Source: a virus
Taxonomy: Duplodnaviria > Heunggongvirae > Uroviricota > Caudoviricetes
DNA: 26,609 nt
Virus record (IMG/VR): IMGVR_UViG_2648501334_000005
Strand: one strand, 5' to 3'
Numbering within the stretch: position 1 is the stretch's first letter; every line of letters begins with the position of its first letter. This document shows positions 7,695-26,609 of this stretch, piece by piece. The position numbers and the translations under genes are program-made. Under the pieces are notes generated by a model. That model searched no databases, was not told where the DNA came from, and worked only from the letters and a program-made list of their open reading frames with translations.

Positions 7695-7712
7695 GTGCGA
7701 CCACGGTCGCAC
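7695..7712. promoter_or_regulatory. sopC-like 18-bp palindrome GTGCGACCACGGTCGCAC, copy 1 (candidate SopB centromere site)
   Basis: Near-perfect inverted repeat with arms TGCGACC/GGTCGCA, differing in one arm position from the F sopC core TGGGACCACGGTCCCA as I recall it. Lies 24 bp upstream of the 286-aa gene start. Confidence 0.5.
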
Positions 7713-7914: not shown

Positions 7915-7932
7915 GTGCGACCACGGTCGCAC
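7915..7932. promoter_or_regulatory. sopC-like 18-bp palindrome GTGCGACCACGGTCGCAC, copy 2
   Basis: Identical to copy 1. Lies between repeat B and the DUF4406-like gene. Confidence 0.5.
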
Positions 7933-10924: not shown

Positions 10925-10942
10925 GTGCGACCGTGGTCGCAC
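10925..10942. promoter_or_regulatory. sopC-like 18-bp palindrome GTGCGACCGTGGTCGCAC, copy 3
   Basis: Same arms as copies 1 and 2 with the centre inverted. Lies in the intergenic region between the 75-aa ORF and the tR'-like terminator. Confidence 0.5.
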
Positions 10943-12216: not shown

Positions 12217-12420
12217 TCAATGATGTGAACGCTCAACAGCGATAGTTTTCTGACAATGCTGGGCAATCTCTCGCGACATGTTGATGAGTCGTGAAACCTC
12301 ACCAATATGTAGGCTGGCTTCTGGAGAAGCCAGGGTGACGCTAACCAGATCCAGAACGGCGTCAATATCTCTTAAATTTGAATCGAGTTGTTCAAGAGTT
12401 GATACGGCTGCTTCAGACAT
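12217..12420 (-). CDS. Hypothetical protein, 67 aa
   Basis: Track ORF. No family recognised. Confidence 0.35.
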   Translation of the reverse strand: MSEAAVSTLEQLDSNLRDIDAVLDLVSVTLASPEASLHIGEVSRLINMSREIAQHCQKTIAVERSHH

Positions 12421-12745: not shown

Positions 12746-12763
12746 TTATCCCTCCGTGACCAG

Positions 12764-13090
12764 TCACGCTTTGAGTGCAAGTTTCAGCCTCGTGGTTGTA
12801 AGGTGGCATGACCCTTCGCCATCAAAAATGCATTCTGAAACAGGCATTTTTTGACCACATCGCGGGCAAGTAGTAGATAGCTGCTTCTGCAGCTCCTTAT
12901 AGTTTTTCCTGATCAGCAAACCAATGACTTCGTTCTCCGAATATGGAACTCGCCCTGGTCTACGCAATACACAAATTTCCCCCAACATACGTAACTCGTC
13001 AGGTTCTAGAATCCAGTCCCGTCTTGATGTGCCTTCCTTCTTCAATCGTTCCCTGCGTCTCCTTTGCCGTTCTGCCGGTGTCAGCGCCAT
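12764..13090 (-). CDS. Hypothetical protein, 108 aa, arginine-rich N-terminus and a CPRCG zinc-ribbon-like motif
   Basis: Track ORF. No family recognised. Confidence 0.4.
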   Translation of the reverse strand: MALTPAERQRRRRERLKKEGTSRRDWILEPDELRMLGEICVLRRPGRVPYSENEVIGLLIRKNYKELQKQLSTTCPRCGQKMPVSECIFDGEGSCHLTTTRLKLALKA

Positions 13091-16192: not shown

Positions 16193-16493
16193 TTTCTTGT
16201 GCGACCACGGTCGCACCCTCTCTGATTTCCAAGTAACGCTTAATCCAAAGATTTTCTATATGCTTATTACCTGGCTGATTTGATAAATACCAATCGGCAA
16301 TTACAGACTGCTTATTACTATCTGGCCGTGTCCTGTAACCACAAGTTGGACACCAGATAACATATTCATTTCTTACCCCCGAATACCTTAATTCTGGCTT
16401 CGACGGTTTCCTGAACATAACTTGTTTACAAAGGCAGAATGGCACTTCCTGCCCGATGGCGTTTGATGATTTCACTGCGCTTCTCCGCCGCAT
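16173..16493 (-). CDS. Zinc-ribbon protein, possibly Lar-family restriction alleviation protein (start uncertain)
   Basis: Track ORF. YVIWCPTCGYRTRPDSNKQSVIADW resembles the Lar-family pattern of CxxC followed by an AIxAW motif. The 3' end encodes ATVVAQ across palindrome copy 4. Confidence 0.35.
   Translation of the reverse strand: MRRRSAVKSSNAIGQEVPFCLCKQVMFRKPSKPELRYSGVRNEYVIWCPTCGYRTRPDSNKQSVIADWYLSNQPGNKHIENLWIKRYLEIREGATVVAQENENNAI
16199..16216. promoter_or_regulatory. sopC-like 18-bp palindrome GTGCGACCACGGTCGCAC, copy 4
   Basis: Identical to copies 1 and 2. Lies in the 3' end of the Lar-like ORF, just upstream of the next gene start. Confidence 0.5.
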
Positions 16494-18280: not shown

Positions 18281-21200
18281 ATGACATTAAACGATTTCTA
18301 TGCGGATCGCTTTGGCAGCGATCCGTTCTCGCTAATTGAAGCAGCACGGGATGAACTAACCGAGCTGGCACAGATGGCTGGTATCAACTGGCCTGCCTGT
18401 TCCGACAACATCCAACTCAACCCTCGCGGGGGGGTTGAGCGTTACTCTTCATACAATAAAACATCTCCAGAAGCTCTCGAAAAGAGCCTGAAAGGACGCG
18501 TAGAAATTTACTCCAGGCTGGAACACAGCAAAGGGATTGATTACCCGTTCATTAACTTCGTCCATAAAGGCAGCGATGCTGGCTCATGGAGCGGTTTCTC
18601 CTTCCTGTTTTCTGAATATCGCCGTGAGCAACAACGGAATAATGCGACCGTGGTCGCACAACCGGAAGAAGAACGGGAAAGAATAGAACGTCAGGCCGAA
18701 GCACGTCGTCGCCGTGAAGAACAAAAACGAATTAATGACCTGAAAAACAACCAAATGGACCATGAACGTTTGCTGGGATGGCTGGCATTCCACAGCGCGT
18801 GGGAACATGCTCCGGCTGAAGACGGCTCATGGCCATATGCGATTAAAAAAGGTATTCGTGACGTTTTTAGTTCATGTGATGTGCGTCGCGTGACCAGTCA
18901 CGACAGTGCGAAATGGAGCCGGGGGCCAACCACATATATGGCTATCCCTCTGGCTCACCTGGACGGTCGTTATGATGGTCGTATTGTGGGTTGGCAGCGA
19001 ATCGACAAACAAGGTGGGAAATACCAGACCAGCGCAGTAACCAGCGGCGATTTCGTCGGTGCCTGCTTTGTTATCGGTGAGCTGAAAGGGGCGCAAAACA
19101 TCGCTGTTACAGAAGGTTTTGCTACTGGTGCATCCATCTGGCTTGCCACGAAAAAAGATAAACGCTTTGACGCTGTGGTTGTCGCTGTATCCGCTAACAA
19201 CATGGTTCATGTTGTGGAACAACTGGTAAACATGTACCCGGCGGCAAAAATCACCTGCGCACTGGATAATGACCGGAAATCTGCCACAGAAGGAAAAGGG
19301 AATACAGGCCTGCGGACTGGCTATGAAATCTTATCGAAATTCAACGATGTCCGCTGCGTCTATCCAACTTTTGAAGACGATCCGCAAATGGAGTGCAGTG
19401 ACTTCAACGACCTGCACAAACTACGTGGACTTCGTGAAACAGCACGTCAACTATTTGCAACAGCAAACCGCCTGAAAACCGGTACTGATTTGCTATCTCT
19501 GACGCTCAACCGCCTGAAGACAATTAAGCGGGATAACCGTCGTACTTTTGCCAAAGAGCTGCTGAGAGCGGTGGATATTGGCATGCTAACCTGTCCGGTT
19601 CCTAACAGTCCGTCAGATTTATTTAACATGTTCTGCATCGTTCTGCGTGAAATGGGACTGGAAAATATCTATCGCGCTACGGTAAAAGACCACATTGCCC
19701 GTCGCCTGAATAAAAAGTGCCGTATTGCCCAGGCTCCGCGCTCTTTCAGCGAACGCATAACTGATCCCAATAAACGCCCTCAACATATCACCTATAAGCG
19801 TTTTGAAACTTCGGTAATGACCGATGATGTCCTGAAGTACGTGCAATCACTACAGGGGATAGTCATCGTCCGTGCTGGTATGGGTTCCGGCAAATCTACT
19901 GGATTGTTACGACCGTTAATGCATAGCTCAGAACGTGGTATCTCTGTTGCTCACCGTGTCTCCCTTATTGGTGGCCTGTGGGAAATGATGACAGAAGGAA
20001 AAGGTGTAAAAGCCGATATCCTGCACTATCAGGATCCTGGCTATCAGGAAATGGCTCCATACGCCAGTAAACTGACCATCTGCATAAACTCGATTGTTAA
20101 AAACTGCTGGCAACCGTTGATGCGCCAGCACGACTATTTTGGCTTTGACGAGGCCACACAAGGGCTACGTGCCGTTCTTTCCGGTCGGGCTATGGAAAAC
20201 CCGGTGGCTGTATTCAATACGCTAATTGACGCGCTGGCCAGAACGGAACAACACCCAATCATGGTAGATGCTGATGCGAACGATCTGCTGGTTGACCTGG
20301 CTGAACTGGCTATGAAACGCCGTGAAGAACTAGGTTTACCGGCATGGCTGCAGATCCACGTAATTGAATTACCTGTTGATGTTCGCAACCGCGAAACAGG
20401 TGAGCCAATCCGGGTTTTTTATACAGAAAAAGATCGCATCATGACCGAGGTGGTGAAAGCTGTATCGGATGGCGAAAAAATCATGTTGGCCACCGACAGC
20501 TCCACCTTTGCAGAAGATGTGACAGCCACCCTGAGAATGCATTTTCCTGGTAAGAAATTTCTGTGTGTAAACCAGAAAAACAAACCAGAGCCAGAAGTTG
20601 AAGCATTTACCAATCAACCGAAAAAGATGGTCAAAAAATACGACGGCCTGATTTATAGCCCGTCTATTTCATCCGGCGTGTCGATTGAGCAAAAACATTT
20701 TGACCGTCATTTCGGCATGTTCTGTGGTGAAGTTGTACCCAGCGACGCAGTGCAAATGCTACGCCGCGACCGTACAGCAAAAGAATTTATTATCGGCTTT
20801 GATAAAGCTCGTGCAAAACGTGAAACTGACCCGCAAAAAATAGAACGAGCATTCGCCCAGGCATTGCTTGCTACCGCAGGTATGAACGGTGAACTGACGG
20901 ATGTCGTTTTCGATGGCGACCGTATATCAATGGGGGTGGCCAATACCGACTTTACCAGGATGAAAATTAAAGCAGCCGCAATTGAAGCGACTGCGCGTAA
21001 CGACTACGCCAGCAACATGATCTGCATCATGCACAGCGACGGTTATAAGGTATCGCCGCTGGCCACCGATTATGCTGCGAATGATATCGGTAAAGATCTG
21101 CGTAAAGAAGCGCGGGATATTGTGTGGGAACAGACACTGGATCTGCACCTCAATACAGAAACTCCACAAGAATCAGAGCGTGAAGAACTGCTAAAAAAAC

Positions 21201-22276
21201 GCGCGCTGACGCTTGAAGAACAGGCAAAACTTGTCCGCTGGGATATTGAAAACGAACTGAAACTACCGGTTGAAGAAGGCACGCTAAAATTCTATTTCGA
21301 TGGTGCTCGAGACAAAGTTCGCCGCTATGAAACAATGCTTTTAGATGAGGTAACAGCTCGTCGTTACGACCGGGAAGAAGCAGCCATCAATTTTACCTAC
21401 GCATACCGTCAGGCGGGACAGTGGCAATATTTTGTAGTGACCGCGATGACTCGCGAGCAGGCTGATGATGTCTTTAAAACTAAATTCCCTGGAATAATCG
21501 ATCACAAGGTAAAAGCTACTCCTACTGTTGAAGTCGGGGCGCGCGGTTTCTATGCGCTTAAATCAGCAACTCTCCGGCAGTACTTTATCGACTGCGGTAT
21601 CAACCCTGAGACTATGACCGGCGAGGCGACTCAGGAGCGTCTCAAATTCGCTCGAGATAACCTCATGACAGCCGAACGCCGTGACCTGTTGAATAACGTT
21701 CTGCACATTGGTGGTTTTATGACGCCAAAAGGGAAGCCTAAAGTGCCGGAAGCGTTGTTTAAAAACATTTGCGACTCTCTTGGCCTTAAAACAGGTAAAC
21801 GTCGCGGCAGAGACGGCGATAAGCGTCCAACCTTGCGTTTTGTTGAGCCTGAATCAGCGGCATTTATGCTGGATATTCTTGTTCAGCGTCAGAAAGATGG
21901 CCTAACACTAAAAACGCGTAAAGCCGAGAAGACAGCCATCGAAATGGATCGCGATTTGGATCTCAATATATATATGGATGATAAAACGCGATCCACAAAC
22001 GAGCAGGTTCAAAACGCCCCTCATTCAGTAATTTCTGAGGCTTTGGCCGTGTTGCCAGTGGCTGTACCTGAGTCCTGGGCGATGAGTGCGCTTTCCAGTG
22101 AGGAGTTGGCCACTATGTCATCATGGTCATCAGCCAGCATAGCTATGACGTTTGCATCCCTGTACCTCACAGAGTTCATGGATCACCTTTCCAGCAATGA
22201 GCTGCGGCGGTTACGTGAATACATTACGGGGAATAGCTCATGCAGCTACGAAGAGCAGGGTGCTTTCTATGGGTAA
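18281..22276 (+). CDS. repA: Replication protein RepA, multidomain primase (TOPRIM) - helicase, 1331 aa
   Basis: Track ORF. TOPRIM-like motifs NIAVTEGFATGASI and CALDNDRKS, Walker A GMGSGKST and Walker B-like FGFDEAT. Size and position next to cB match N15 RepA (about 1324 aa as I recall). Confidence 0.9.
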   Translation: MTLNDFYADRFGSDPFSLIEAARDELTELAQMAGINWPACSDNIQLNPRGGVERYSSYNKTSPEALEKSLKGRVEIYSRLEHSKGIDYPFINFVHKGSDAGSWSGFSFLFSEYRREQQRNNATVVAQPEEERERIERQAEARRRREEQKRINDLKNNQMDHERLLGWLAFHSAWEHAPAEDGSWPYAIKKGIRDVFSSCDVRRVTSHDSAKWSRGPTTYMAIPLAHLDGRYDGRIVGWQRIDKQGGKYQTSAVTSGDFVGACFVIGELKGAQNIAVTEGFATGASIWLATKKDKRFDAVVVAVSANNMVHVVEQLVNMYPAAKITCALDNDRKSATEGKGNTGLRTGYEILSKFNDVRCVYPTFEDDPQMECSDFNDLHKLRGLRETARQLFATANRLKTGTDLLSLTLNRLKTIKRDNRRTFAKELLRAVDIGMLTCPVPNSPSDLFNMFCIVLREMGLENIYRATVKDHIARRLNKKCRIAQAPRSFSERITDPNKRPQHITYKRFETSVMTDDVLKYVQSLQGIVIVRAGMGSGKSTGLLRPLMHSSERGISVAHRVSLIGGLWEMMTEGKGVKADILHYQDPGYQEMAPYASKLTICINSIVKNCWQPLMRQHDYFGFDEATQGLRAVLSGRAMENPVAVFNTLIDALARTEQHPIMVDADANDLLVDLAELAMKRREELGLPAWLQIHVIELPVDVRNRETGEPIRVFYTEKDRIMTEVVKAVSDGEKIMLATDSSTFAEDVTATLRMHFPGKKFLCVNQKNKPEPEVEAFTNQPKKMVKKYDGLIYSPSISSGVSIEQKHFDRHFGMFCGEVVPSDAVQMLRRDRTAKEFIIGFDKARAKRETDPQKIERAFAQALLATAGMNGELTDVVFDGDRISMGVANTDFTRMKIKAAAIEATARNDYASNMICIMHSDGYKVSPLATDYAANDIGKDLRKEARDIVWEQTLDLHLNTETPQESEREELLKKRALTLEEQAKLVRWDIENELKLPVEEGTLKFYFDGARDKVRRYETMLLDEVTARRYDREEAAINFTYAYRQAGQWQYFVVTAMTREQADDVFKTKFPGIIDHKVKATPTVEVGARGFYALKSATLRQYFIDCGINPETMTGEATQERLKFARDNLMTAERRDLLNNVLHIGGFMTPKGKPKVPEALFKNICDSLGLKTGKRRGRDGDKRPTLRFVEPESAAFMLDILVQRQKDGLTLKTRKAEKTAIEMDRDLDLNIYMDDKTRSTNEQVQNAPHSVISEALAVLPVAVPESWAMSALSSEELATMSSWSSASIAMTFASLYLTEFMDHLSSNELRRLREYITGNSSCSYEEQGAFYG
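18642..18659. promoter_or_regulatory. sopC-like palindrome ATGCGACCGTGGTCGCAC, copy 5 (17/18), inside repA coding sequence
   Basis: Same TGCGACC/GGTCGCA arms. Encodes ATVVAQ in RepA. Confidence 0.45.
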
Positions 22277-23189: not shown

Positions 23190-23195
23190 ATTGTG

Positions 23196-23504
23196 ATGAC
23201 TGTTACAGGAGATAAAGTGAAGAGTTTTATTTTTGTTTTATGTTTTGCCTTTTCTGCTGCGGTTTATGCCCAGGAAGATAGCATTTCTGTTATTAACTCA
23301 TCAGCGGAGCTTGCATGTAAAAATAATCCCGATGCTGCATCAAAAGAGTCATGCAAAGAGCTGCTCCTTTCGACGGCTGCTTTTGCTTCTGAAAATGCAA
23401 AATTTTATTCAGCCTTTTGTCGCGGCTATGTTAAGGACGAAGATAAAGAAAAATGTGATGATGCCGGTAAGTTAGTTAGGTATTTCCAATCTCTTAATCA
23501 GTAA
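23196..23504 (+). CDS. Small secreted cysteine-containing protein with N-terminal signal peptide (start 23196 ATG, or GTG at 23217 after an AGGAG)
   Basis: Track ORF. Signal-peptide-like KSFIFVLCFAFSAAVYA followed by QEDS (AxA-type cleavage site). Mature part has 4 Cys. No family recognised. Confidence 0.5.
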   Translation: MTVTGDKVKSFIFVLCFAFSAAVYAQEDSISVINSSAELACKNNPDAASKESCKELLLSTAAFASENAKFYSAFCRGYVKDEDKEKCDDAGKLVRYFQSLNQ

Positions 23505-23644
23505 TGGCCTTTGATTAACGATCAACTTCTGATCACTCGTTCAAGCAAACTATAAAAACACCTGTCCCCGTGACTGGTCACGGGGTAAAATGTCTTTGCA
23601 AATTATTGACGTGCGCGTCGTTTTGACGGTAAAGTTTACTCCGC

Positions 23645-23717
23645 TACGGTAAATCCCGTAGCCGGGCGTAGGAACCCGAGTAAATGAAGCGCACAACACG
23701 CGCCAGCGTGTTTTTTT
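23645..23717 (+). ncRNA. Candidate c4-like antisense/regulatory small RNA of an immI-like anti-immunity locus
   Basis: Possible promoters with TTGACG -35 boxes at 23606-23611 and 23623-23628. Hairpin GCTACGG-TAAATC-CCGTAGC. Intrinsic terminator at 23696-23717 (ACACGC-GCCA-GCGTGT followed by T7). GTAGGAA motif (23668-23674) is complementary to TTCCTAC (23801-23807) in the icd leader. Boundaries are approximate. Confidence 0.3.
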
Positions 23718-23880
23718 GTGTGTAAAATCTGCGTACACCAAATTTATGGTGGCTCAGATGGGGCAGCTTTTAGCTGGCCGGTTTCTTCGTTTACCGGTAT
23801 TCCTACCCCCGTCTGGGCTACCGCCATATAGAGCGTAGGAACTCTGGTGGTAGCACGACCAATTAAACGGAGTGCATACC

Positions 23881-24045
23881 ATGTTCAAATTCAAATTTGC
23901 GGCAATCGTTCGCACAGACAAAAAGTCACACATCCATCATCTTTCCACCATCGCGTCATCTGAACGGGAAGCTCGTCGCCAGTTCGCCAGCCGGTTTGTC
24001 CTGGTATTGTCTGCCCGTATTCCGGTGCGCGAGGTGGCTGCATGA
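23881..24045 (+). CDS. icd: Icd-like small protein (host cell-division inhibitor family), 54 aa
   Basis: Below the track's length cut-off. ATG at 23881 with GGAG upstream. Translation MFKFKFAAIVRTDKKSHIHHLSTIASSEREARRQFASRFVLVLSARIPVREVAA has an Icd-like ARRQF...ARIPV pattern. Stop overlaps the next ATG (ATGA). Confidence 0.45.
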   Translation: MFKFKFAAIVRTDKKSHIHHLSTIASSEREARRQFASRFVLVLSARIPVREVAA

Positions 24046-24275
24046 ATCAGGTAAAAATGAACACTGTTGGCCTGCTGGAATCGTTGGATGAACGTCTGGC
24101 TCAGGTCTATGCGCTCGTATCATCAGCCCATCGGACAATCTCCAGTTGTGAGGCGTCGATTTATCTCTCAGAAGCAGGGAAACTCCTTCAAATTGCGTGT
24201 GAGCTAACACACGAAGCACAGGGTTATTCAGCATCGCTCTCGTCGCAATTGCTGCACGATAAGGAGGCTGAATGA
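24042..24275 (+). CDS. Hypothetical protein, 77 aa, in the anti-immunity operon
   Basis: Track ORF, translationally coupled to the icd-like ORF. No family recognised. Confidence 0.4.
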   Translation: MNQVKMNTVGLLESLDERLAQVYALVSSAHRTISSCEASIYLSEAGKLLQIACELTHEAQGYSASLSSQLLHDKEAE

Positions 24276-24436
24276 GCGCGTTAGCAGTATTTTCCTTTCA
24301 GGAAGAGCATCAGGTTCGTGTAGTGATGATCAACGGCGAACCGTGGTTTGTTGCATCTGATGTGTGTATGGCGGCGGGTATTGATTCTACGGCCATCAGA
24401 AAGTTGGATGAGCACGAAAAGGGGCAGGCGAGGTAG
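24272..24436 (+). pseudogene. ant: Truncated antirepressor: BRO-N domain N-terminal fragment, 54 codons
   Basis: AAGGAGG Shine-Dalgarno then ATG at 24272. MSALAVFSFQEEHQVRVVMINGEPWFVASDVCMAAGIDSTAIRKLDEHEKGQAR matches the start of BRO-N/Ant domains but stops after the EKG motif. Only about 45 bp remain before the telN 3' end. Confidence 0.45.
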
Positions 24437-24481
24437 ACCACACAACAAGGCACCGATAATTCGGTGCCTTTACCGTATGCT

Positions 24482-26383
24482 TTATCCGAAATATGTCAGC
24501 CATGCTAACTGCATTGCTGATATAGGGCTGTTTGCACTGCCGGACCAAGCATAATTCTGGCCATTATAATGAAACTCAACAACGTATGAGCCATCACCAA
24601 TATTTCTCACAGGCTTAAATACCGGCTTAGATACAGGTGAAGAAGGCGCGGGCGGTTGCTGTTCTTCTACGCTCTCTTCCTCTTCCTCTTCCTCTTCCTC
24701 TATCTCAATTTCGTCGTCATCCAGATCGTCATCCTCTGATAATTCATCCGTCTGTTCAGGTATTGCTTCCAGCTCTTCTTCGTCAGGCATAACGATTTCT
24801 GGAGAATCTATTTTCAGCTGCCATTGTCCATTTTCGCCAACAAATTGCCCCAGAGCATCAGCAGCAAATTCCAGGTATCGACTAATCATTGTAGGGCTAA
24901 ATTTGAATGCTCTTAGAGTGCTGTTCGTGATTTTTATAGAGGGGTCCTGCTCTACCAGCTGCTTAACTGTGTTATGCAGACGAACTCCGGCATCTCCTCT
25001 GGCGAATCCTGGCATTTCGTCATCAAGCTGCTGCAATGCTTCCAGCCTGGTATTTTCGTTTCCAGTATTTGGCCTCCATGTCTTTGAGAAGTTGGCCAGC
25101 TTGAATTGCTTATAGTGTAATTGAGTGTTTTCATCGTCATGGCCTAAAATTTCCATAAAGAAAACATCCTCATCTACGTTTTTCCAACGAGGATCTACGC
25201 GGAAAAACATTTCATACGCAATACGGGCATAAATAGCACGACTATCTTTATAAACACGGCGGTCATCTTTGAAAAATGATTTAACCCACGGGTTAAAAGC
25301 CTTTGCTAATATGGCATTAATCCGTCCGTTTTCAGAGCGTGTGTCGTTATCTCCATAACCTTTAACGACATCATCAAAATCAGATGCTGCTGGGCATGAG
25401 CGAAGTACATTTATTAAATAAACAAATGTTTTTGCTTCGCATAATGTATATATTTTTCTGGTTATATCATCAGAAGTTCTTTTTTTTGCTTGGCCTAAAA
25501 AATCAACGGTATACTTACCAGAAACAGTAAATGTACCTTGATACATAATCTCAATCATTCGTCTTCCAGACAATGCAGCAAGTGCAAATGCCAAAGGAGC
25601 CATACCTGAACGAGTGTTTAGATTATTTAATGTAGCAGGGCTATTTATAATATCGTAAATAGCTTGCATATATTTAGGGTAATCAATGACCACTACGTTA
25701 CGTTTCTTATTGTGCAGAACGTCTGCCCATCGTTGCTGGATAGATGCGCGTTCGGCAGGGCTTAGTTGAAGATGATAGAGAATCTCATGGTTAACTTTTA
25801 GCTGATTCAACTCCTCAAGTAAGGCAGATCCTTGCTGTAGTAATTTATATAAATAATCGCGCTTATCTTTCCAGTTATCGCTAGTTAAATCAGAAATGGC
25901 GAATTGCCACTCTTTATATTTATTTGATAATTTTAATAACTTATTATGACTTTTGTTATCACCAATTCTGATATTAGATAAATCTTCTGATAAAGGGAGA
26001 ATTAATTTTAATTTTGCCTGTAAAGCTGACATTCTCTGGCGAATATCGGCAGCAGGTAGAGAAAGCCATGATAATAGCTCCTCATTATATAAAGGATACT
26101 TTTCAGATAGGCGATGTATATTTTTTTCAAAGCTATGATGAAGTTTATCATCAAACCGTTTTCTGGCCCTGCTCATATAGGCATTGAATGTGTTGGCTGT
26201 AATTCTTTTTTCTAATCCTTTCCCCCTAAACTTTCGCTTGTCATTAAATAATGCATTTTTAAATTTTAATGCAACAGCTTTTATTTTTTTTGTTTTTTCC
26301 CCTTGAGGACGGTCAGAGTTATCTATTGACTCAACATCGCTAACAAGTGAGTTTATTAATTCACCGATTTTTACTTTGCTCAT
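24482..26383 (-). CDS. telN: Protelomerase (telomere resolvase) TelN, 633 aa
   Basis: Track ORF. MSKVKIGELINSLVSDVESIDNSDRPQGEKTKKIKAVALKFKNALFNDKRKFRGKGLEKRITANTFNAYMSRARKRFDDKLHH... tracks N15 TelN (about 631 aa) as I recall it, including the acidic C-terminal stretch. Strong AGGAGAGG ribosome-binding site. Confidence 0.92.
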   Translation of the reverse strand: MSKVKIGELINSLVSDVESIDNSDRPQGEKTKKIKAVALKFKNALFNDKRKFRGKGLEKRITANTFNAYMSRARKRFDDKLHHSFEKNIHRLSEKYPLYNEELLSWLSLPAADIRQRMSALQAKLKLILPLSEDLSNIRIGDNKSHNKLLKLSNKYKEWQFAISDLTSDNWKDKRDYLYKLLQQGSALLEELNQLKVNHEILYHLQLSPAERASIQQRWADVLHNKKRNVVVIDYPKYMQAIYDIINSPATLNNLNTRSGMAPLAFALAALSGRRMIEIMYQGTFTVSGKYTVDFLGQAKKRTSDDITRKIYTLCEAKTFVYLINVLRSCPAASDFDDVVKGYGDNDTRSENGRINAILAKAFNPWVKSFFKDDRRVYKDSRAIYARIAYEMFFRVDPRWKNVDEDVFFMEILGHDDENTQLHYKQFKLANFSKTWRPNTGNENTRLEALQQLDDEMPGFARGDAGVRLHNTVKQLVEQDPSIKITNSTLRAFKFSPTMISRYLEFAADALGQFVGENGQWQLKIDSPEIVMPDEEELEAIPEQTDELSEDDDLDDDEIEIEEEEEEEEESVEEQQPPAPSSPVSKPVFKPVRNIGDGSYVVEFHYNGQNYAWSGSANSPISAMQLAWLTYFG

Positions 26384-26539
26384 CTTTCCTCTCCTGATTA
26401 TCCGCTCGGATTATCGTAACACAATTTGAGAATAAGATAACTAATAACGCGTTAACTTAGTCACAAACTAACAGAACACAATAACGGATAATAAACAAAA
26501 ACACAATATCGGAACGTTAAAATCTGTTCCTTGATTTTG

Positions 26540-26609
26540 TTCTAAAGATCAGCACATAATCCCCCATTATACGCGCGTATAATGGGGGATTATGTGCTGA
26601 TCTTTAGAA
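26540..26609. other. telRL: Telomere resolution site (telRL / tos core): perfect 70-bp palindrome centred on ACGCGCGT
   Basis: 26540-26609 is a perfect inverted repeat, checked base by base, with centre between 26574 and 26575. Core CCATTATACGCGCGTATAATGG matches the N15 telO palindrome as I recall it. It reaches the final base of the window. Confidence 0.9.

Follow-up and report, generated by a model that had tools for sequence, protein, structure and literature searches.

The region at positions 23560-24436 of the 26,609-nucleotide stretch of viral DNA analysed here (the window) is, in our reading, the counterpart of the N15 immA (secondary immunity or anti-immunity) operon, carried by an N15-like linear plasmid-prophage of E. 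coli, and on the strength of sequence comparison we give this identification a probability of roughly 85%. The original prediction had proposed an anti-immunity locus with c4 logic, which stands and can be stated more precisely as an N15 immA operon in the interval between repA and telN, and all the sequence features that it had named were found where it had placed them. The window corresponds to the right arm of a linear, N15-like phage-plasmid, with repA (18281-22276), the protelomerase gene telN (24482-26383, minus strand) and the tel palindrome at the window end. The immA-type operon (23606-24436; plus strand, like repA and like the RNAs and genes of the operon described below) lies downstream of repA and is transcribed towards the convergent telN. 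This interval between repA and the protelomerase gene is also the location of immA in N15, with the layout following N15 genes 37...32-31-30-29 and the gene order at the locus that of genes 32-31-30 adjoining telN.

At the DNA level the locus is 79% identical to N15 genes 33-31 (regulatory region and icd), and 92-95% identical to the E. coli phages YDC107_1 and PhiR46_1 (a literature search for PhiR46_1 gave no result). N15 immA and the locus in the window share place and orientation, an upstream GTGAC palindrome, and the succession of elements, in which the promoter is followed by a leader with its terminator, then by the C4-family RNA, and then by icd, the small antA and the BRO-N gene antB. 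They differ in the genes 5' of the module, with shared homology beginning at ~23516, and in antB, which is full-length in N15 and has 54 codons in the window as the result of a 735-bp deletion. Between the antB remnant and telN lies a hairpin with a 10-bp stem (24447-24470; an inverted repeat, 100% complementary), likely a bidirectional terminator; at the equivalent site the phiKO2 record annotates a terminator as 'putative bidirectional'.

The first gene of the operon, as in N15 immA, is an icd homologue (23881-24045) encoding a cell-division inhibitor Icd-like protein of 54 aa. The product matched the NCBIfam profile NF033153 (phage_ICD_like) over profile positions 1-48 of 48, scoring 66.8 bits where the cut-off is 25, and the icd-like assignment thus held in a profile search; the phiKO2 record describes Gp29 as 'similar to ... 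N15 icd'. The second gene (24042-24275) is intact and encodes a 77-aa product, which has 63% identity to N15 gp31 and 66% to phiKO2 Gp28 (76 aa, noted as 'similar to antirepressor encoded by N15 AntA'), is homologous to PY54 antA (87 aa, E = 3e-9), and matches phrog_6301 and phrog_10889 'anti-repressor', with no match in Pfam. Judged by these similarities, the 77-aa ORF is a homologue of AntA, the small antirepressor of the N15 family that has been defined by experiment; automatic annotation leaves antA as 'hypothetical'. Elsewhere in the window a 67-aa ORF behind a LexA box, absent from the ORF list, is an AntA paralogue (AntC-like): this protein and the 77-aa AntA both match phrog_6301 over their full length, a relationship missed by BLASTP. 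A gene-47-like ORF by the second palindrome copy (see below) was considered as a further AntA paralogue and rejected, as it has no similarity. Both junctions between the ORFs are as the sequence had suggested: antA overlaps icd by ATGA and the 54-codon antB remnant (24272-24436), preceded by the Shine-Dalgarno sequence AAGGAGG at 24261-67, overlaps antA in the same way.

Upstream of these genes, a consensus scan predicts a sigma-70 promoter at 23606-23635, the counterpart of N15 Pa, with TTGACG, an 18-nt spacer and TAAAGT (23630-35). The TTGACG boxes noticed earlier are both present (23606 and 23623), but only the first has a partner -10 hexamer, and only the first is conserved, with both of its promoter hexamers kept in 10 relatives. 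The predicted transcript start is near G23643, which is also where the match to the Rfam isrK model begins. What would follow is a leader RNA of the IsrK, seqA or a1b1 type (23643-23717), containing two hairpins, two target sequences and an intrinsic terminator. The stable first hairpin (23643-23662), present as claimed, has compensatory changes among relatives; the loop of the second holds the target b1, GUAGGAA (23668-74), and the target a1, GUAAAUGAAG, is at 23680-89. A terminator scan located the intrinsic terminator as a stem at 23695-23712 followed by T7, ending at 23717, and the N15 record has an annotated terminator at the homologous position. The leader scored 62.5 bits with Rfam isrK (RF01394; gathering score 50) over model positions 1-77 of 77, and 34.3 bits with Rfam c4-a1b1, below the gathering score of 46.7; its fold z-score was -2.9. 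A short terminated RNA of ~70 nt, as had been predicted from the sequence, is therefore plausible.

Downstream of the terminator lies the C4-family antisense RNA (23742-23828), the counterpart of N15 CA RNA, which matched Rfam C4 (RF01695) with 73.6 bits (gathering score 45) over model positions 1-87 of 87, and which automatic annotation mislabels as 'ash family protein'. Both the isrK and the C4 families were also matched at the homologous positions of N15, phiKO2 and a further six relatives. A long helix closes the RNA, which contains two internal hairpins and ends in the 3' tail GCCA; the minimum free energy is -44.4 kcal/mol and the fold z-score -5.6. The closing helix keeps 100% of its pairing across 10 relatives, among which compensatory changes occur. 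Two recognition elements are exposed, a' (CUUCGUUUAC, 23785-94) in a hairpin loop and b' (UUCCUAC, 23800-06) in a single-stranded joint, and each has complementary sites both upstream, in the leader, and downstream. The downstream sites are b2, GUAGGAA (23835-41), an exact complement of b' in the loop of a small hairpin 3' of the C4-like RNA, and a2, UAAACGGAG (23864-72), which includes the icd Shine-Dalgarno GGAG (23869-72) and can form a 9-bp duplex with a' containing one G-U pair. The locus thus has the arrangement that characterizes C4-type systems, with the downstream site placed over the ribosome binding site (RBS) of the first gene. The complementarity of GTAGGAA (23668-74) to TTCCTAC (23800-06), on which the original prediction was built, is exact, and the second GTAGGAA, at 23835-41, had been overlooked.

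Comparison of ten related sequences showed that both recognition elements co-vary three ways, i.e. with their leader copies and with their copies ahead of icd. The kinship of these sequences makes shuffle controls overstate significance, and a slid-partner control and a matrix of cognate and non-cognate pairings were taken as the more reliable measures. In the window b' is exactly complementary to both b1 and b2. Across the ten sequences b'-b2 is 100% paired, with 4 of the 7 pairs changed on both sides, a covariation score reached by none of 500 shuffles, and slid controls were only 33-53% paired; for b1-b' the paired fraction is 87%, and both partners have changed in 3 of the pairs. Mean duplex energies were -10.0 kcal/mol for cognate versus -3.8 kcal/mol for non-cognate b'-b1 pairings, and -9.3 versus -3.2 kcal/mol for b'-b2. 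The a elements were judged by duplex energies of the individual sequences instead of by column-wise pair counts, because indels shift the a1 and a2 regions out of alignment register; here the means were -12.2 (cognate) versus -7.4 (non-cognate) kcal/mol for a'-a1, and -9.5 versus -6.3 kcal/mol for a'-a2, with the a1 pairing of the window (-7.4 kcal/mol) weaker than in most relatives. The leader and C4 segment is also the most divergent part of the locus, with 73-89% identity between relatives that are otherwise 93-99% identical, a divergence that would be expected of a specificity determinant. Both elements differ between the window and N15, b' being UUCCUAC versus UUGAGAA and a' CUUCGUUUA versus CUUCUUGUA, and the two systems are therefore predicted not to cross-react.

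The mechanism that we propose is built on these parts and on analogy with characterized relatives; the N15 immA mechanism as used here is general background, in part taken from secondary summaries. Transcription would start near 23643 from the promoter at 23606-23635, and most transcripts would stop at the terminator (23695-23717), giving an IsrK-like leader RNA of ~74 nt. Read-through transcripts would contain the C4-family RNA, which would be excised and accumulate in the manner of P1 c4 and N15 CA RNA. The sole sequence feature bearing on this maturation is the tRNA-like closing helix followed by GCCA; P1/P7 c4 is matured from a longer precursor by RNase P. Each of a' and b' would then pair with its leader copy (a1, b1) and with its copy ahead of icd (a2, b2), and the downstream pairing, in which a2 covers the icd RBS, would block icd translation, a block that should extend to antA and antB because the three genes overlap by ATGA. 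Pairing with the leader would either favour termination, in the style of P4 and N15, or allow the short RNA to titrate the antisense RNA, in the style of Gifsy-1 IsrK. Once repression is relieved, Icd would block host division and the 77-aa AntA would inactivate the CB prophage repressor, while SOS induction would proceed via the separate AntA paralogue under the LexA box. In this element antB has lost codons 52-258, and the other parts of the system are intact.

Several known systems resemble this arrangement. The immI region of P1/P7 likewise has an Rfam C4 RNA, with a1/b1 upstream, a2/b2 downstream, a target over the icd RBS and a homologous icd, and differs from the window, which has an intrinsic terminator between the upstream targets and the C4 RNA, and a linear plasmid as host element. 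The antirepressor of the window we take to be a 77-aa protein of another family followed by a BRO-N protein, where P1 has Ant1/Ant2. The specificity classes of recognition elements in the family of the window recall the heteroimmunity of P1/P7 that Citron and Schuster reportedly described in 1990. The immunity region of P4 (seqA, CI RNA, seqC) is similar by description, with a processed small RNA between two complementary targets on the same transcript; there, CI RNA ends the transcription of replication genes prematurely, and P4 is not known to have an icd or ant. The isrK locus of Gifsy-1 (IsrK, STnc1160/orf45, anrP) shares with the window a full-length isrK match, a stable-RNA region in the read-through transcript, and translationally coupled genes that lead to an antirepressor-like gene; its output is the AntQ antiterminator, whereas the genes downstream in the window are icd and antA.

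The likeness to Gifsy-1 raises a possibility that we hold tentatively, at less than even odds, namely that control is positive and the locus a switch, more than just a repressed operon, with the leader acting in trans as an activator by titrating C4 or by remodelling the read-through mRNA. In N15 the a1/b1 side presumably acts in premature termination, which counts against such a role, and positive control of the IsrK type would in any case be compatible with the mechanism above rather than exclusive of it. The sequences that recommend it are the leader elements a1 and b1, as mimics of a2 and b2, the isrK match, which exceeds the gathering score not only in the window but in each of the 8 relatives examined, and a conserved CUCUGGUGGUAGC (23843-55), whose possible base-pairing to the C4 helix (3' strand) offers an alternative structure. 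IsrK has been described as a structural homologue of seqA, and in Gifsy-1 the short IsrK RNA was shown experimentally to activate translation in trans, with the stable STnc1160 RNA arising from read-through transcripts. It is, on the other hand, extremely unlikely that the c4- or CA-like repressor, acting on the downstream TTCCTAC, is the short terminated RNA (23643-23716): its complementarity to that site, its promoter, its strong terminator and its passing score with a known sRNA family are real, but the TTCCTAC-bearing stretch is the full-length C4 match of 73.6 bits, the short RNA matches isrK and a1b1 as a target-bearing leader does, TTCCTAC lies 75 nt 5' of the icd start and not at the RBS, which is instead complementary to the C4-like loop, and the homologous short RNA in Gifsy-1 activates downstream genes and does not repress them. 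The roles assigned by the original prediction, which had taken the RNA from 23640-23720 as the c4/CA homologue, are thus reversed: its 'target' (23742-23828) is the C4 RNA, and its RNA carries a1/b1.

The 20-bp palindrome CCCCGTGACTGGTCACGGGG (23566-23585) is perfect, as had been claimed, with its centre ~67 bp 5' of the predicted immA transcript start. Its 14-bp core, CGTGACTGGTCACG, has three exact copies in the window (at 12755, 18889 and 23569), against 0.67 expected even with 2 mismatches allowed, and is therefore not a chance match; N15 also has three exact copies, at homologous places. The palindrome is kept in all relatives compared, N15 included, where the outer CCCC arm is altered without compensation, which points to a site in the DNA and not to a hairpin in the RNA. 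Its position directly 5' of the -35 hexamer, its conservation, and its perfect symmetry, as expected of a dimer binding site, would suit an operator for repressor control of the immA promoter, like Op51 in P1 immI, yet we consider this doubtful, as the core also occurs inside repA and between the homologues of genes 46 and 47, in the window and in N15 alike, the three positions share no relation to promoters, and the palindrome is unlike the annotated N15 CB operators or a LexA box. Inspection against these CB operators and a LexA box ruled it out as either of them, and it is not an N15 Sop centromere (SopB IR) site, for which the published IR sequences are GTGCGACCNNGGTCGCAC, with five exact copies in the window and none at 23566. 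Since its copies have no common promoter relation, and it resembles neither CB operator nor LexA box, the palindrome may serve the plasmid more generally, as a structural or regulatory site.

The principal departure from N15 immA is the third gene, where the full-length antB (a BRO-N protein of ~260 aa) is missing. The 54-aa product consists of the first 51 codons of a YDC107_1-type BRO-N protein of 258 aa, followed by three junction codons (QAR) and a stop. Compared with YDC107_1, a stretch of ~735 bp (L001 3409-4143), flanked by homologous sequence on either side, is missing from the window, and the junction at ~24421-24423 shows GGG microhomology. The earlier observation of a BRO-N N-terminal match that then stops was correct: the 54-aa product covers only positions 1-41 of 96 of Pfam Bro-N (PF02498), where the full YDC107_1 protein covers 1-96, its match to PHROG profiles of 250-480 positions spans only ~50 positions, and it lacks the C-terminal region and a complete Bro-N domain. 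Comparison of the ant region thus identified the BRO-N gene as a deletion derivative, and the 54-codon ORF is the remnant of antB, made by a single ~735-bp deletion. The truncated gene is accordingly not the antirepressor itself, as had been assumed, but the auxiliary one, the BRO-N homologue being called 'auxiliary anti-repressor AntB' in the phiKO2 record, while the AntA homologue of 77 aa is intact. That truncation locks the element in the repressed state is unlikely, given the intact AntA, the AntA paralogue behind its LexA box, N15 induction, which a secondary summary reports to run through AntC, and the wide occurrence of the allele in full-size elements.

The deletion allele is carried by well over 1,000 contigs from E. 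coli/Shigella. Of 17 complete E. coli genomes whose records cover 80% or more of the region, 13 have it, as do 18 plasmids in PLSDB, and it occurs together with at least three different C4 specificity types. Such frequency, together with an ORF that is intact in every copy seen and retains its strong Shine-Dalgarno sequence and ATGA coupling, could be taken to mean that the 54-aa BRO-N fragment is no dead remnant but a selected functional micro-protein, dominant-negative or a minimal interaction module with AntA. We regard this as distinctly unlikely, since no more than 41 of the 96 positions of the Bro-N profile are left in the fragment, its variants alter conserved positions (e.g. W25R, G36D), and an ORF of 54 codons can stay open by chance for a long time. 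All members of its protein cluster end in ...EKGQAR or a point variant, and because this junction-coded C-terminus is common to them, all copies derive from one deletion. Stub alleles from five sequenced elements differ by ~4 non-synonymous versus 3 synonymous changes, too small a number to reveal constraint clearly, and the Klebsiella phage 48ST307 lacks antB, while in Kpn74 the gene has a frameshift. The Shine-Dalgarno sequence and ATG of the antB remnant are covered by a hairpin (24226-24273).

The reading of the region as an N15 immA operon makes the locus an ordinary one, a known system in a common allele: systems of this type have already been characterized experimentally in N15, P1 and Gifsy-1, their RNAs are in Rfam, and the exact allele is present, automatically annotated, in many public E. 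coli/Shigella plasmids. As by-products, the analysis provides a correct parts list for a common family of phage-plasmids, and comparative evidence for several predicted specificity classes, set by elements that co-vary three ways, and the repeated loss of the BRO-N gene antB fits its 'auxiliary' status. A broader proposal, which we consider unlikely, is that the antB-deletion allele is favoured in N15-like phage-plasmids of E. coli/Shigella and is not a neutral scar: recombination would have carried a single deletion to backbones of at least three C4 classes, and the allele would now predominate, either because loss of the auxiliary antirepressor stabilizes plasmid-prophage carriage or because the 54-aa remnant is functional. 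A related part of this proposal is that the a and b elements assort independently and, if true, such assortment (4 b types and at least 4 a types) would give co-circulating phage-plasmids a combinatorial code for their anti-immunity specificity.

The window carries, in its gene listing, a RepA-type gene (1331 aa, 18281-22276, plus strand) and, convergent with it, a protelomerase gene (633 aa, 24482-26383, minus strand), and its end is a long perfect palindrome (26537-26609) that the sequence runs through past the centre, and which has the look of a tel site in the style of N15 telRL/telO. An Rfam match to the microRNA-precursor family MIR9563 at these last positions is spurious, being produced by the palindrome itself. 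For the region at 23560-24436, identity reaches 94.9% with Escherichia phage PhiR46_1 and 91.9% with phage YDC107_1 (genus Ravinvirus); with phage N15 it is 79% across the regulatory part, icd and the beginning of the following gene. The homologous N15 stretch holds genes 32, 31 and 30, adjoining telN (gene 29), with a terminator annotated before gene 32. From gene content, these identities and the N15 gene order, the window is, at the level of sequence, part of an N15-like linear plasmid-prophage, namely its right arm, and the region corresponds to the N15 immA operon. Among complete replicons the nearest is the E. coli plasmid NZ_CP145143.1, which matches 96% of 25 kb at 98.7% identity. Homology with N15 and YDC107_1 begins at about 23516-23520, the left boundary of the immA module. 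Upstream of the module lies a 103-aa ORF (23193-23504) with a signal-peptide-like N-terminus, annotated in PhiR46_1 as 'Spackle exclusion protein' and absent from both N15 and YDC107_1.

Sequence reading, scans, folding and profile searches located every feature of the original prediction: a 20-bp palindrome (23566-85) and, on the plus strand, two TTGACG boxes upstream of a hairpin (23643-62), a terminator (stem 23695-23712 followed by seven T, terminator scan), GTAGGAA at 23668-74 complementary to TTCCTAC at 23800-06, three ORFs joined by ATGA overlaps, and a strong Shine-Dalgarno sequence, AAGGAGG (24261-67). The reading of these features as an anti-immunity locus holds for the kind of locus, for icd and for the truncation as a real one, and fails for the identities of the antisense regulator and of the antirepressor gene. 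The first of these had been placed at the short RNA that ends in the terminator. In Rfam searches, the C4 antisense RNA model instead matches over its full length at 23742-23828 (73.6 bits against a gathering score of 45), in the sequence previously taken for the target, and the IsrK model, also over its full length, at 23643-23716 (62.5 bits against 50), so that the predicted short RNA survives as a candidate RNA in the role of leader. The a1/b1 target model matches 23630-23682 at a sub-threshold 34.3 bits, and the C4 and isrK matches recur at homologous places in eight relatives, among them N15 and phiKO2. In the predicted fold of the C4-like RNA (-44.4 kcal/mol, z-score -5.6), a long helix closes the structure around two internal hairpins, and a GCCA tail follows. 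In the RefSeq E. coli plasmids L005-L009, the C4 RNA gene is overlaid by short CDSs or pseudogenes that the NCBI pipeline calls 'ash family protein', and antA is labelled 'hypothetical protein'; both are likely annotation artefacts.

Two recognition elements of the C4-like RNA, all sites being on the plus strand, find partners both in the leader and ahead of icd. Element b' (UUCCUAC, 23800-06), in the joint preceding the closing helix, is exactly complementary to b1 (GUAGGAA, 23668-74) in the loop of leader hairpin 2, and to b2, a second GUAGGAA (23835-41) in the loop of a small downstream hairpin. Element a' (CUUCGUUUAC, 23785-94), in a hairpin loop, can form 10 bp, one of them G-U, with a1 (GUAAAUGAAG, 23680-89) directly 5' of the terminator stem, and 9 bp, again with one G-U, with a2 (UAAACGGAG, 23864-72), which includes the icd Shine-Dalgarno GGAG. 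Directly after b2 stands an invariant sequence, CUCUGGUGGUAGCAC (23843-23857), complementary to GCUACCGCC (about 23817-25), which forms the 3' strand of the closing helix of the C4 RNA. Through this pairing, read-through transcripts that escape processing would have a second possible fold, much like the alternative structures described at the isrK locus.

The leader and C4 segment (23601-23880) is the most divergent part of the region: compared with L001-L014, it shows 73-89% identity between phage-plasmids that agree at 93-99% in the flanking genes. In an alignment (A1) of ten distinct relatives, every cell of the b'-b2 helix is paired (100%), and four of its seven pairs have changed on both sides; pairing of the C4 closing helix is likewise 100%, and that of b1-b' 87%, with three such two-sided changes. 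None of 500 shuffles attains the observed covariation score, a generous statistic because the compared sequences are related; better evidence comes from slid controls, where shifting the partner by 1-3 columns lowers pairing to 33-53%, and from duplex energies computed for each C4-like RNA against each target set. The latter show a clear cognate preference, the cognate and non-cognate means being -10.0 and -3.8 kcal/mol for b'-b1, -9.3 and -3.2 for b'-b2, -12.2 and -7.4 for a'-a1, and -9.5 and -6.3 for a'-a2. Both recognition elements show three-way covariation.

The first ORF (icd, 23881-24045) was confirmed as an Icd-like division inhibitor by profile search (NF033153, 66.8 bits vs 25). The truncated gene had been taken for the antirepressor; the antirepressor gene is the intact 77-aa ORF (antA, 24042-24275), and the truncated one is antB. 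This assignment draws on the identity of the 77-aa product to N15 gp31 (63%) and phiKO2 Gp28 (66%), on the phiKO2 record, which describes Gp28 as 'similar to antirepressor encoded by Bacteriophage N15 AntA' and the product of the next gene, Gp27, a 260-aa BRO-N protein, as 'similar to auxilary anti-repressor encoded by Bacteriophage N15 AntB', and on the homology of PY54 antA (87 aa) to N15 gp31 (E = 1e-10) and to the 77-aa ORF (E = 3e-9). It also agrees with reports that expression of the P840 orthologue abolished lysogenisation and that N15 AntA serves to increase copy number in pJAZZ vectors, and with reviews, according to which the function of AntB has not been elucidated.

A single perfect LexA box (CTGTATAAAATTACAG, 12459-74) is present in the window, overlapping a promoter-like TTGACC...TATAAAT. 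Behind it, on the minus strand, lies a 67-aa ORF (12217-12420) belonging to the PHROG family of AntA (phrog_6301, E = 1.8e-35) with 28% identity to AntA, and this paralogue probably corresponds to AntC, the antirepressor under SOS control by which N15 is reported to be induced. PY54 antA adjoins a DinI-like gene and has 42% identity to the 67-aa ORF; in position as well as in sequence, it resembles this paralogue at least as much as the immA antA. Since AntA is intact and a LexA-box-controlled paralogue is present, the suggestion that the truncation locks the element in repression is unlikely.

The antB remnant (24272-24436) encodes 54 aa that cover only positions 1-41 of the 96 in the Bro-N profile. 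As had been proposed, it is a deletion derivative: with homology on both flanks, the alignment to YDC107_1 runs to 24423 and resumes at 24421, with GGG microhomology at the junction, and 735 bp of YDC107_1 (L001 3409-4143) are missing, comprising codons 52-258 of the BRO-N gene and most of the following 60-aa ORF. The junction appends Q-A-R and a stop, and in the protein collection every 54-aa relative has this junction-coded ending, ...EKGQAR or a point variant, which points to a single deletion event behind all stubs. The allele is widespread, being found in 13 of 17 complete E. coli genome records covering at least 80% of the region, while the junction occurs in 18 PLSDB plasmids from E. 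coli and Shigella sonnei, and the protein cluster comprises 51 sequence variants, of which one is carried by at least 1000 contigs. Its co-occurrence with at least three C4 specificity types implies recombination. The variants spread along the peptide, conserved Bro-N positions included, and constraint is not clearly apparent from the few substitutions that distinguish stub alleles. Both the start codon and the Shine-Dalgarno sequence of the remnant are sequestered in an imperfect hairpin (24226-24273, -22.5 kcal/mol), and translation of the remnant would then probably depend on ribosomes completing antA. Independent losses are seen in Klebsiella phage 48ST307, where antB is entirely absent and the terminator and telN come directly after antA (L014 1331-1382), and in Kpn74 (L013 1328-2103), where it is split by a frameshift near codon 27, possibly a sequencing error. 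Being absent in the one and interrupted in the other, antB appears dispensable.

The 14-bp core of the palindrome, CGTGACTGGTCACG (CGTGAC(TG/CA)GTCACG), occurs three times in exact form in the window, namely ahead of the immA promoter (23569-23582), inside repA (18889-18902) and between the gene 46-like and gene 47-like ORFs (12755-12768), and N15 has three exact copies at homologous places (28549, 33236 and 39268, in the same order). An N15 SopB centromere (IR) repeat is ruled out by the different published IR sequence, and a CB operator or LexA box by comparison. In N15 an outer arm is changed without compensation, which favours a putative protein-binding DNA site; it may influence the promoter Pa, but the three copies are not placed in any consistent way relative to promoters. 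The N15-type SopB centromere core itself, GCGACCNNGGTCGC, occurs in five exact copies (7697-7710, 7917-7930, 10927-10940, 16201-16214 and 18644-18657, one inside repA); N15 has been described with four SopB IR sites.

By sequence, all parts of the locus are homologous to the N15 immA operon, with RNAs that belong to the C4 and IsrK families by covariance model, one target overlapping the icd ribosome-binding site, and ORFs coupled through ATGA. Transcription would start at the predicted promoter and the C4-like RNA would be processed, repressing translation of icd and, via coupling, of antA, and so holding back the presumed activities of Icd and AntA. Leader targets have a role in termination in N15 and P4. 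Those of the window may act likewise, or in titration or activation, as shown for IsrK in Gifsy-1.

The system is thus of a known kind in a known genomic place, its RNA parts already in Rfam and its allele abundant in public data. Among the relatives the b elements fall into four types and the a elements into at least four, which assort independently, and the window has its b type in common with phiKO2 and its a type with PhiR46_1. Such a pattern would be expected of a specificity determinant, as in P1/P7 heteroimmunity, and the differing a/b combinations suggest module exchange and several anti-immunity specificity classes.
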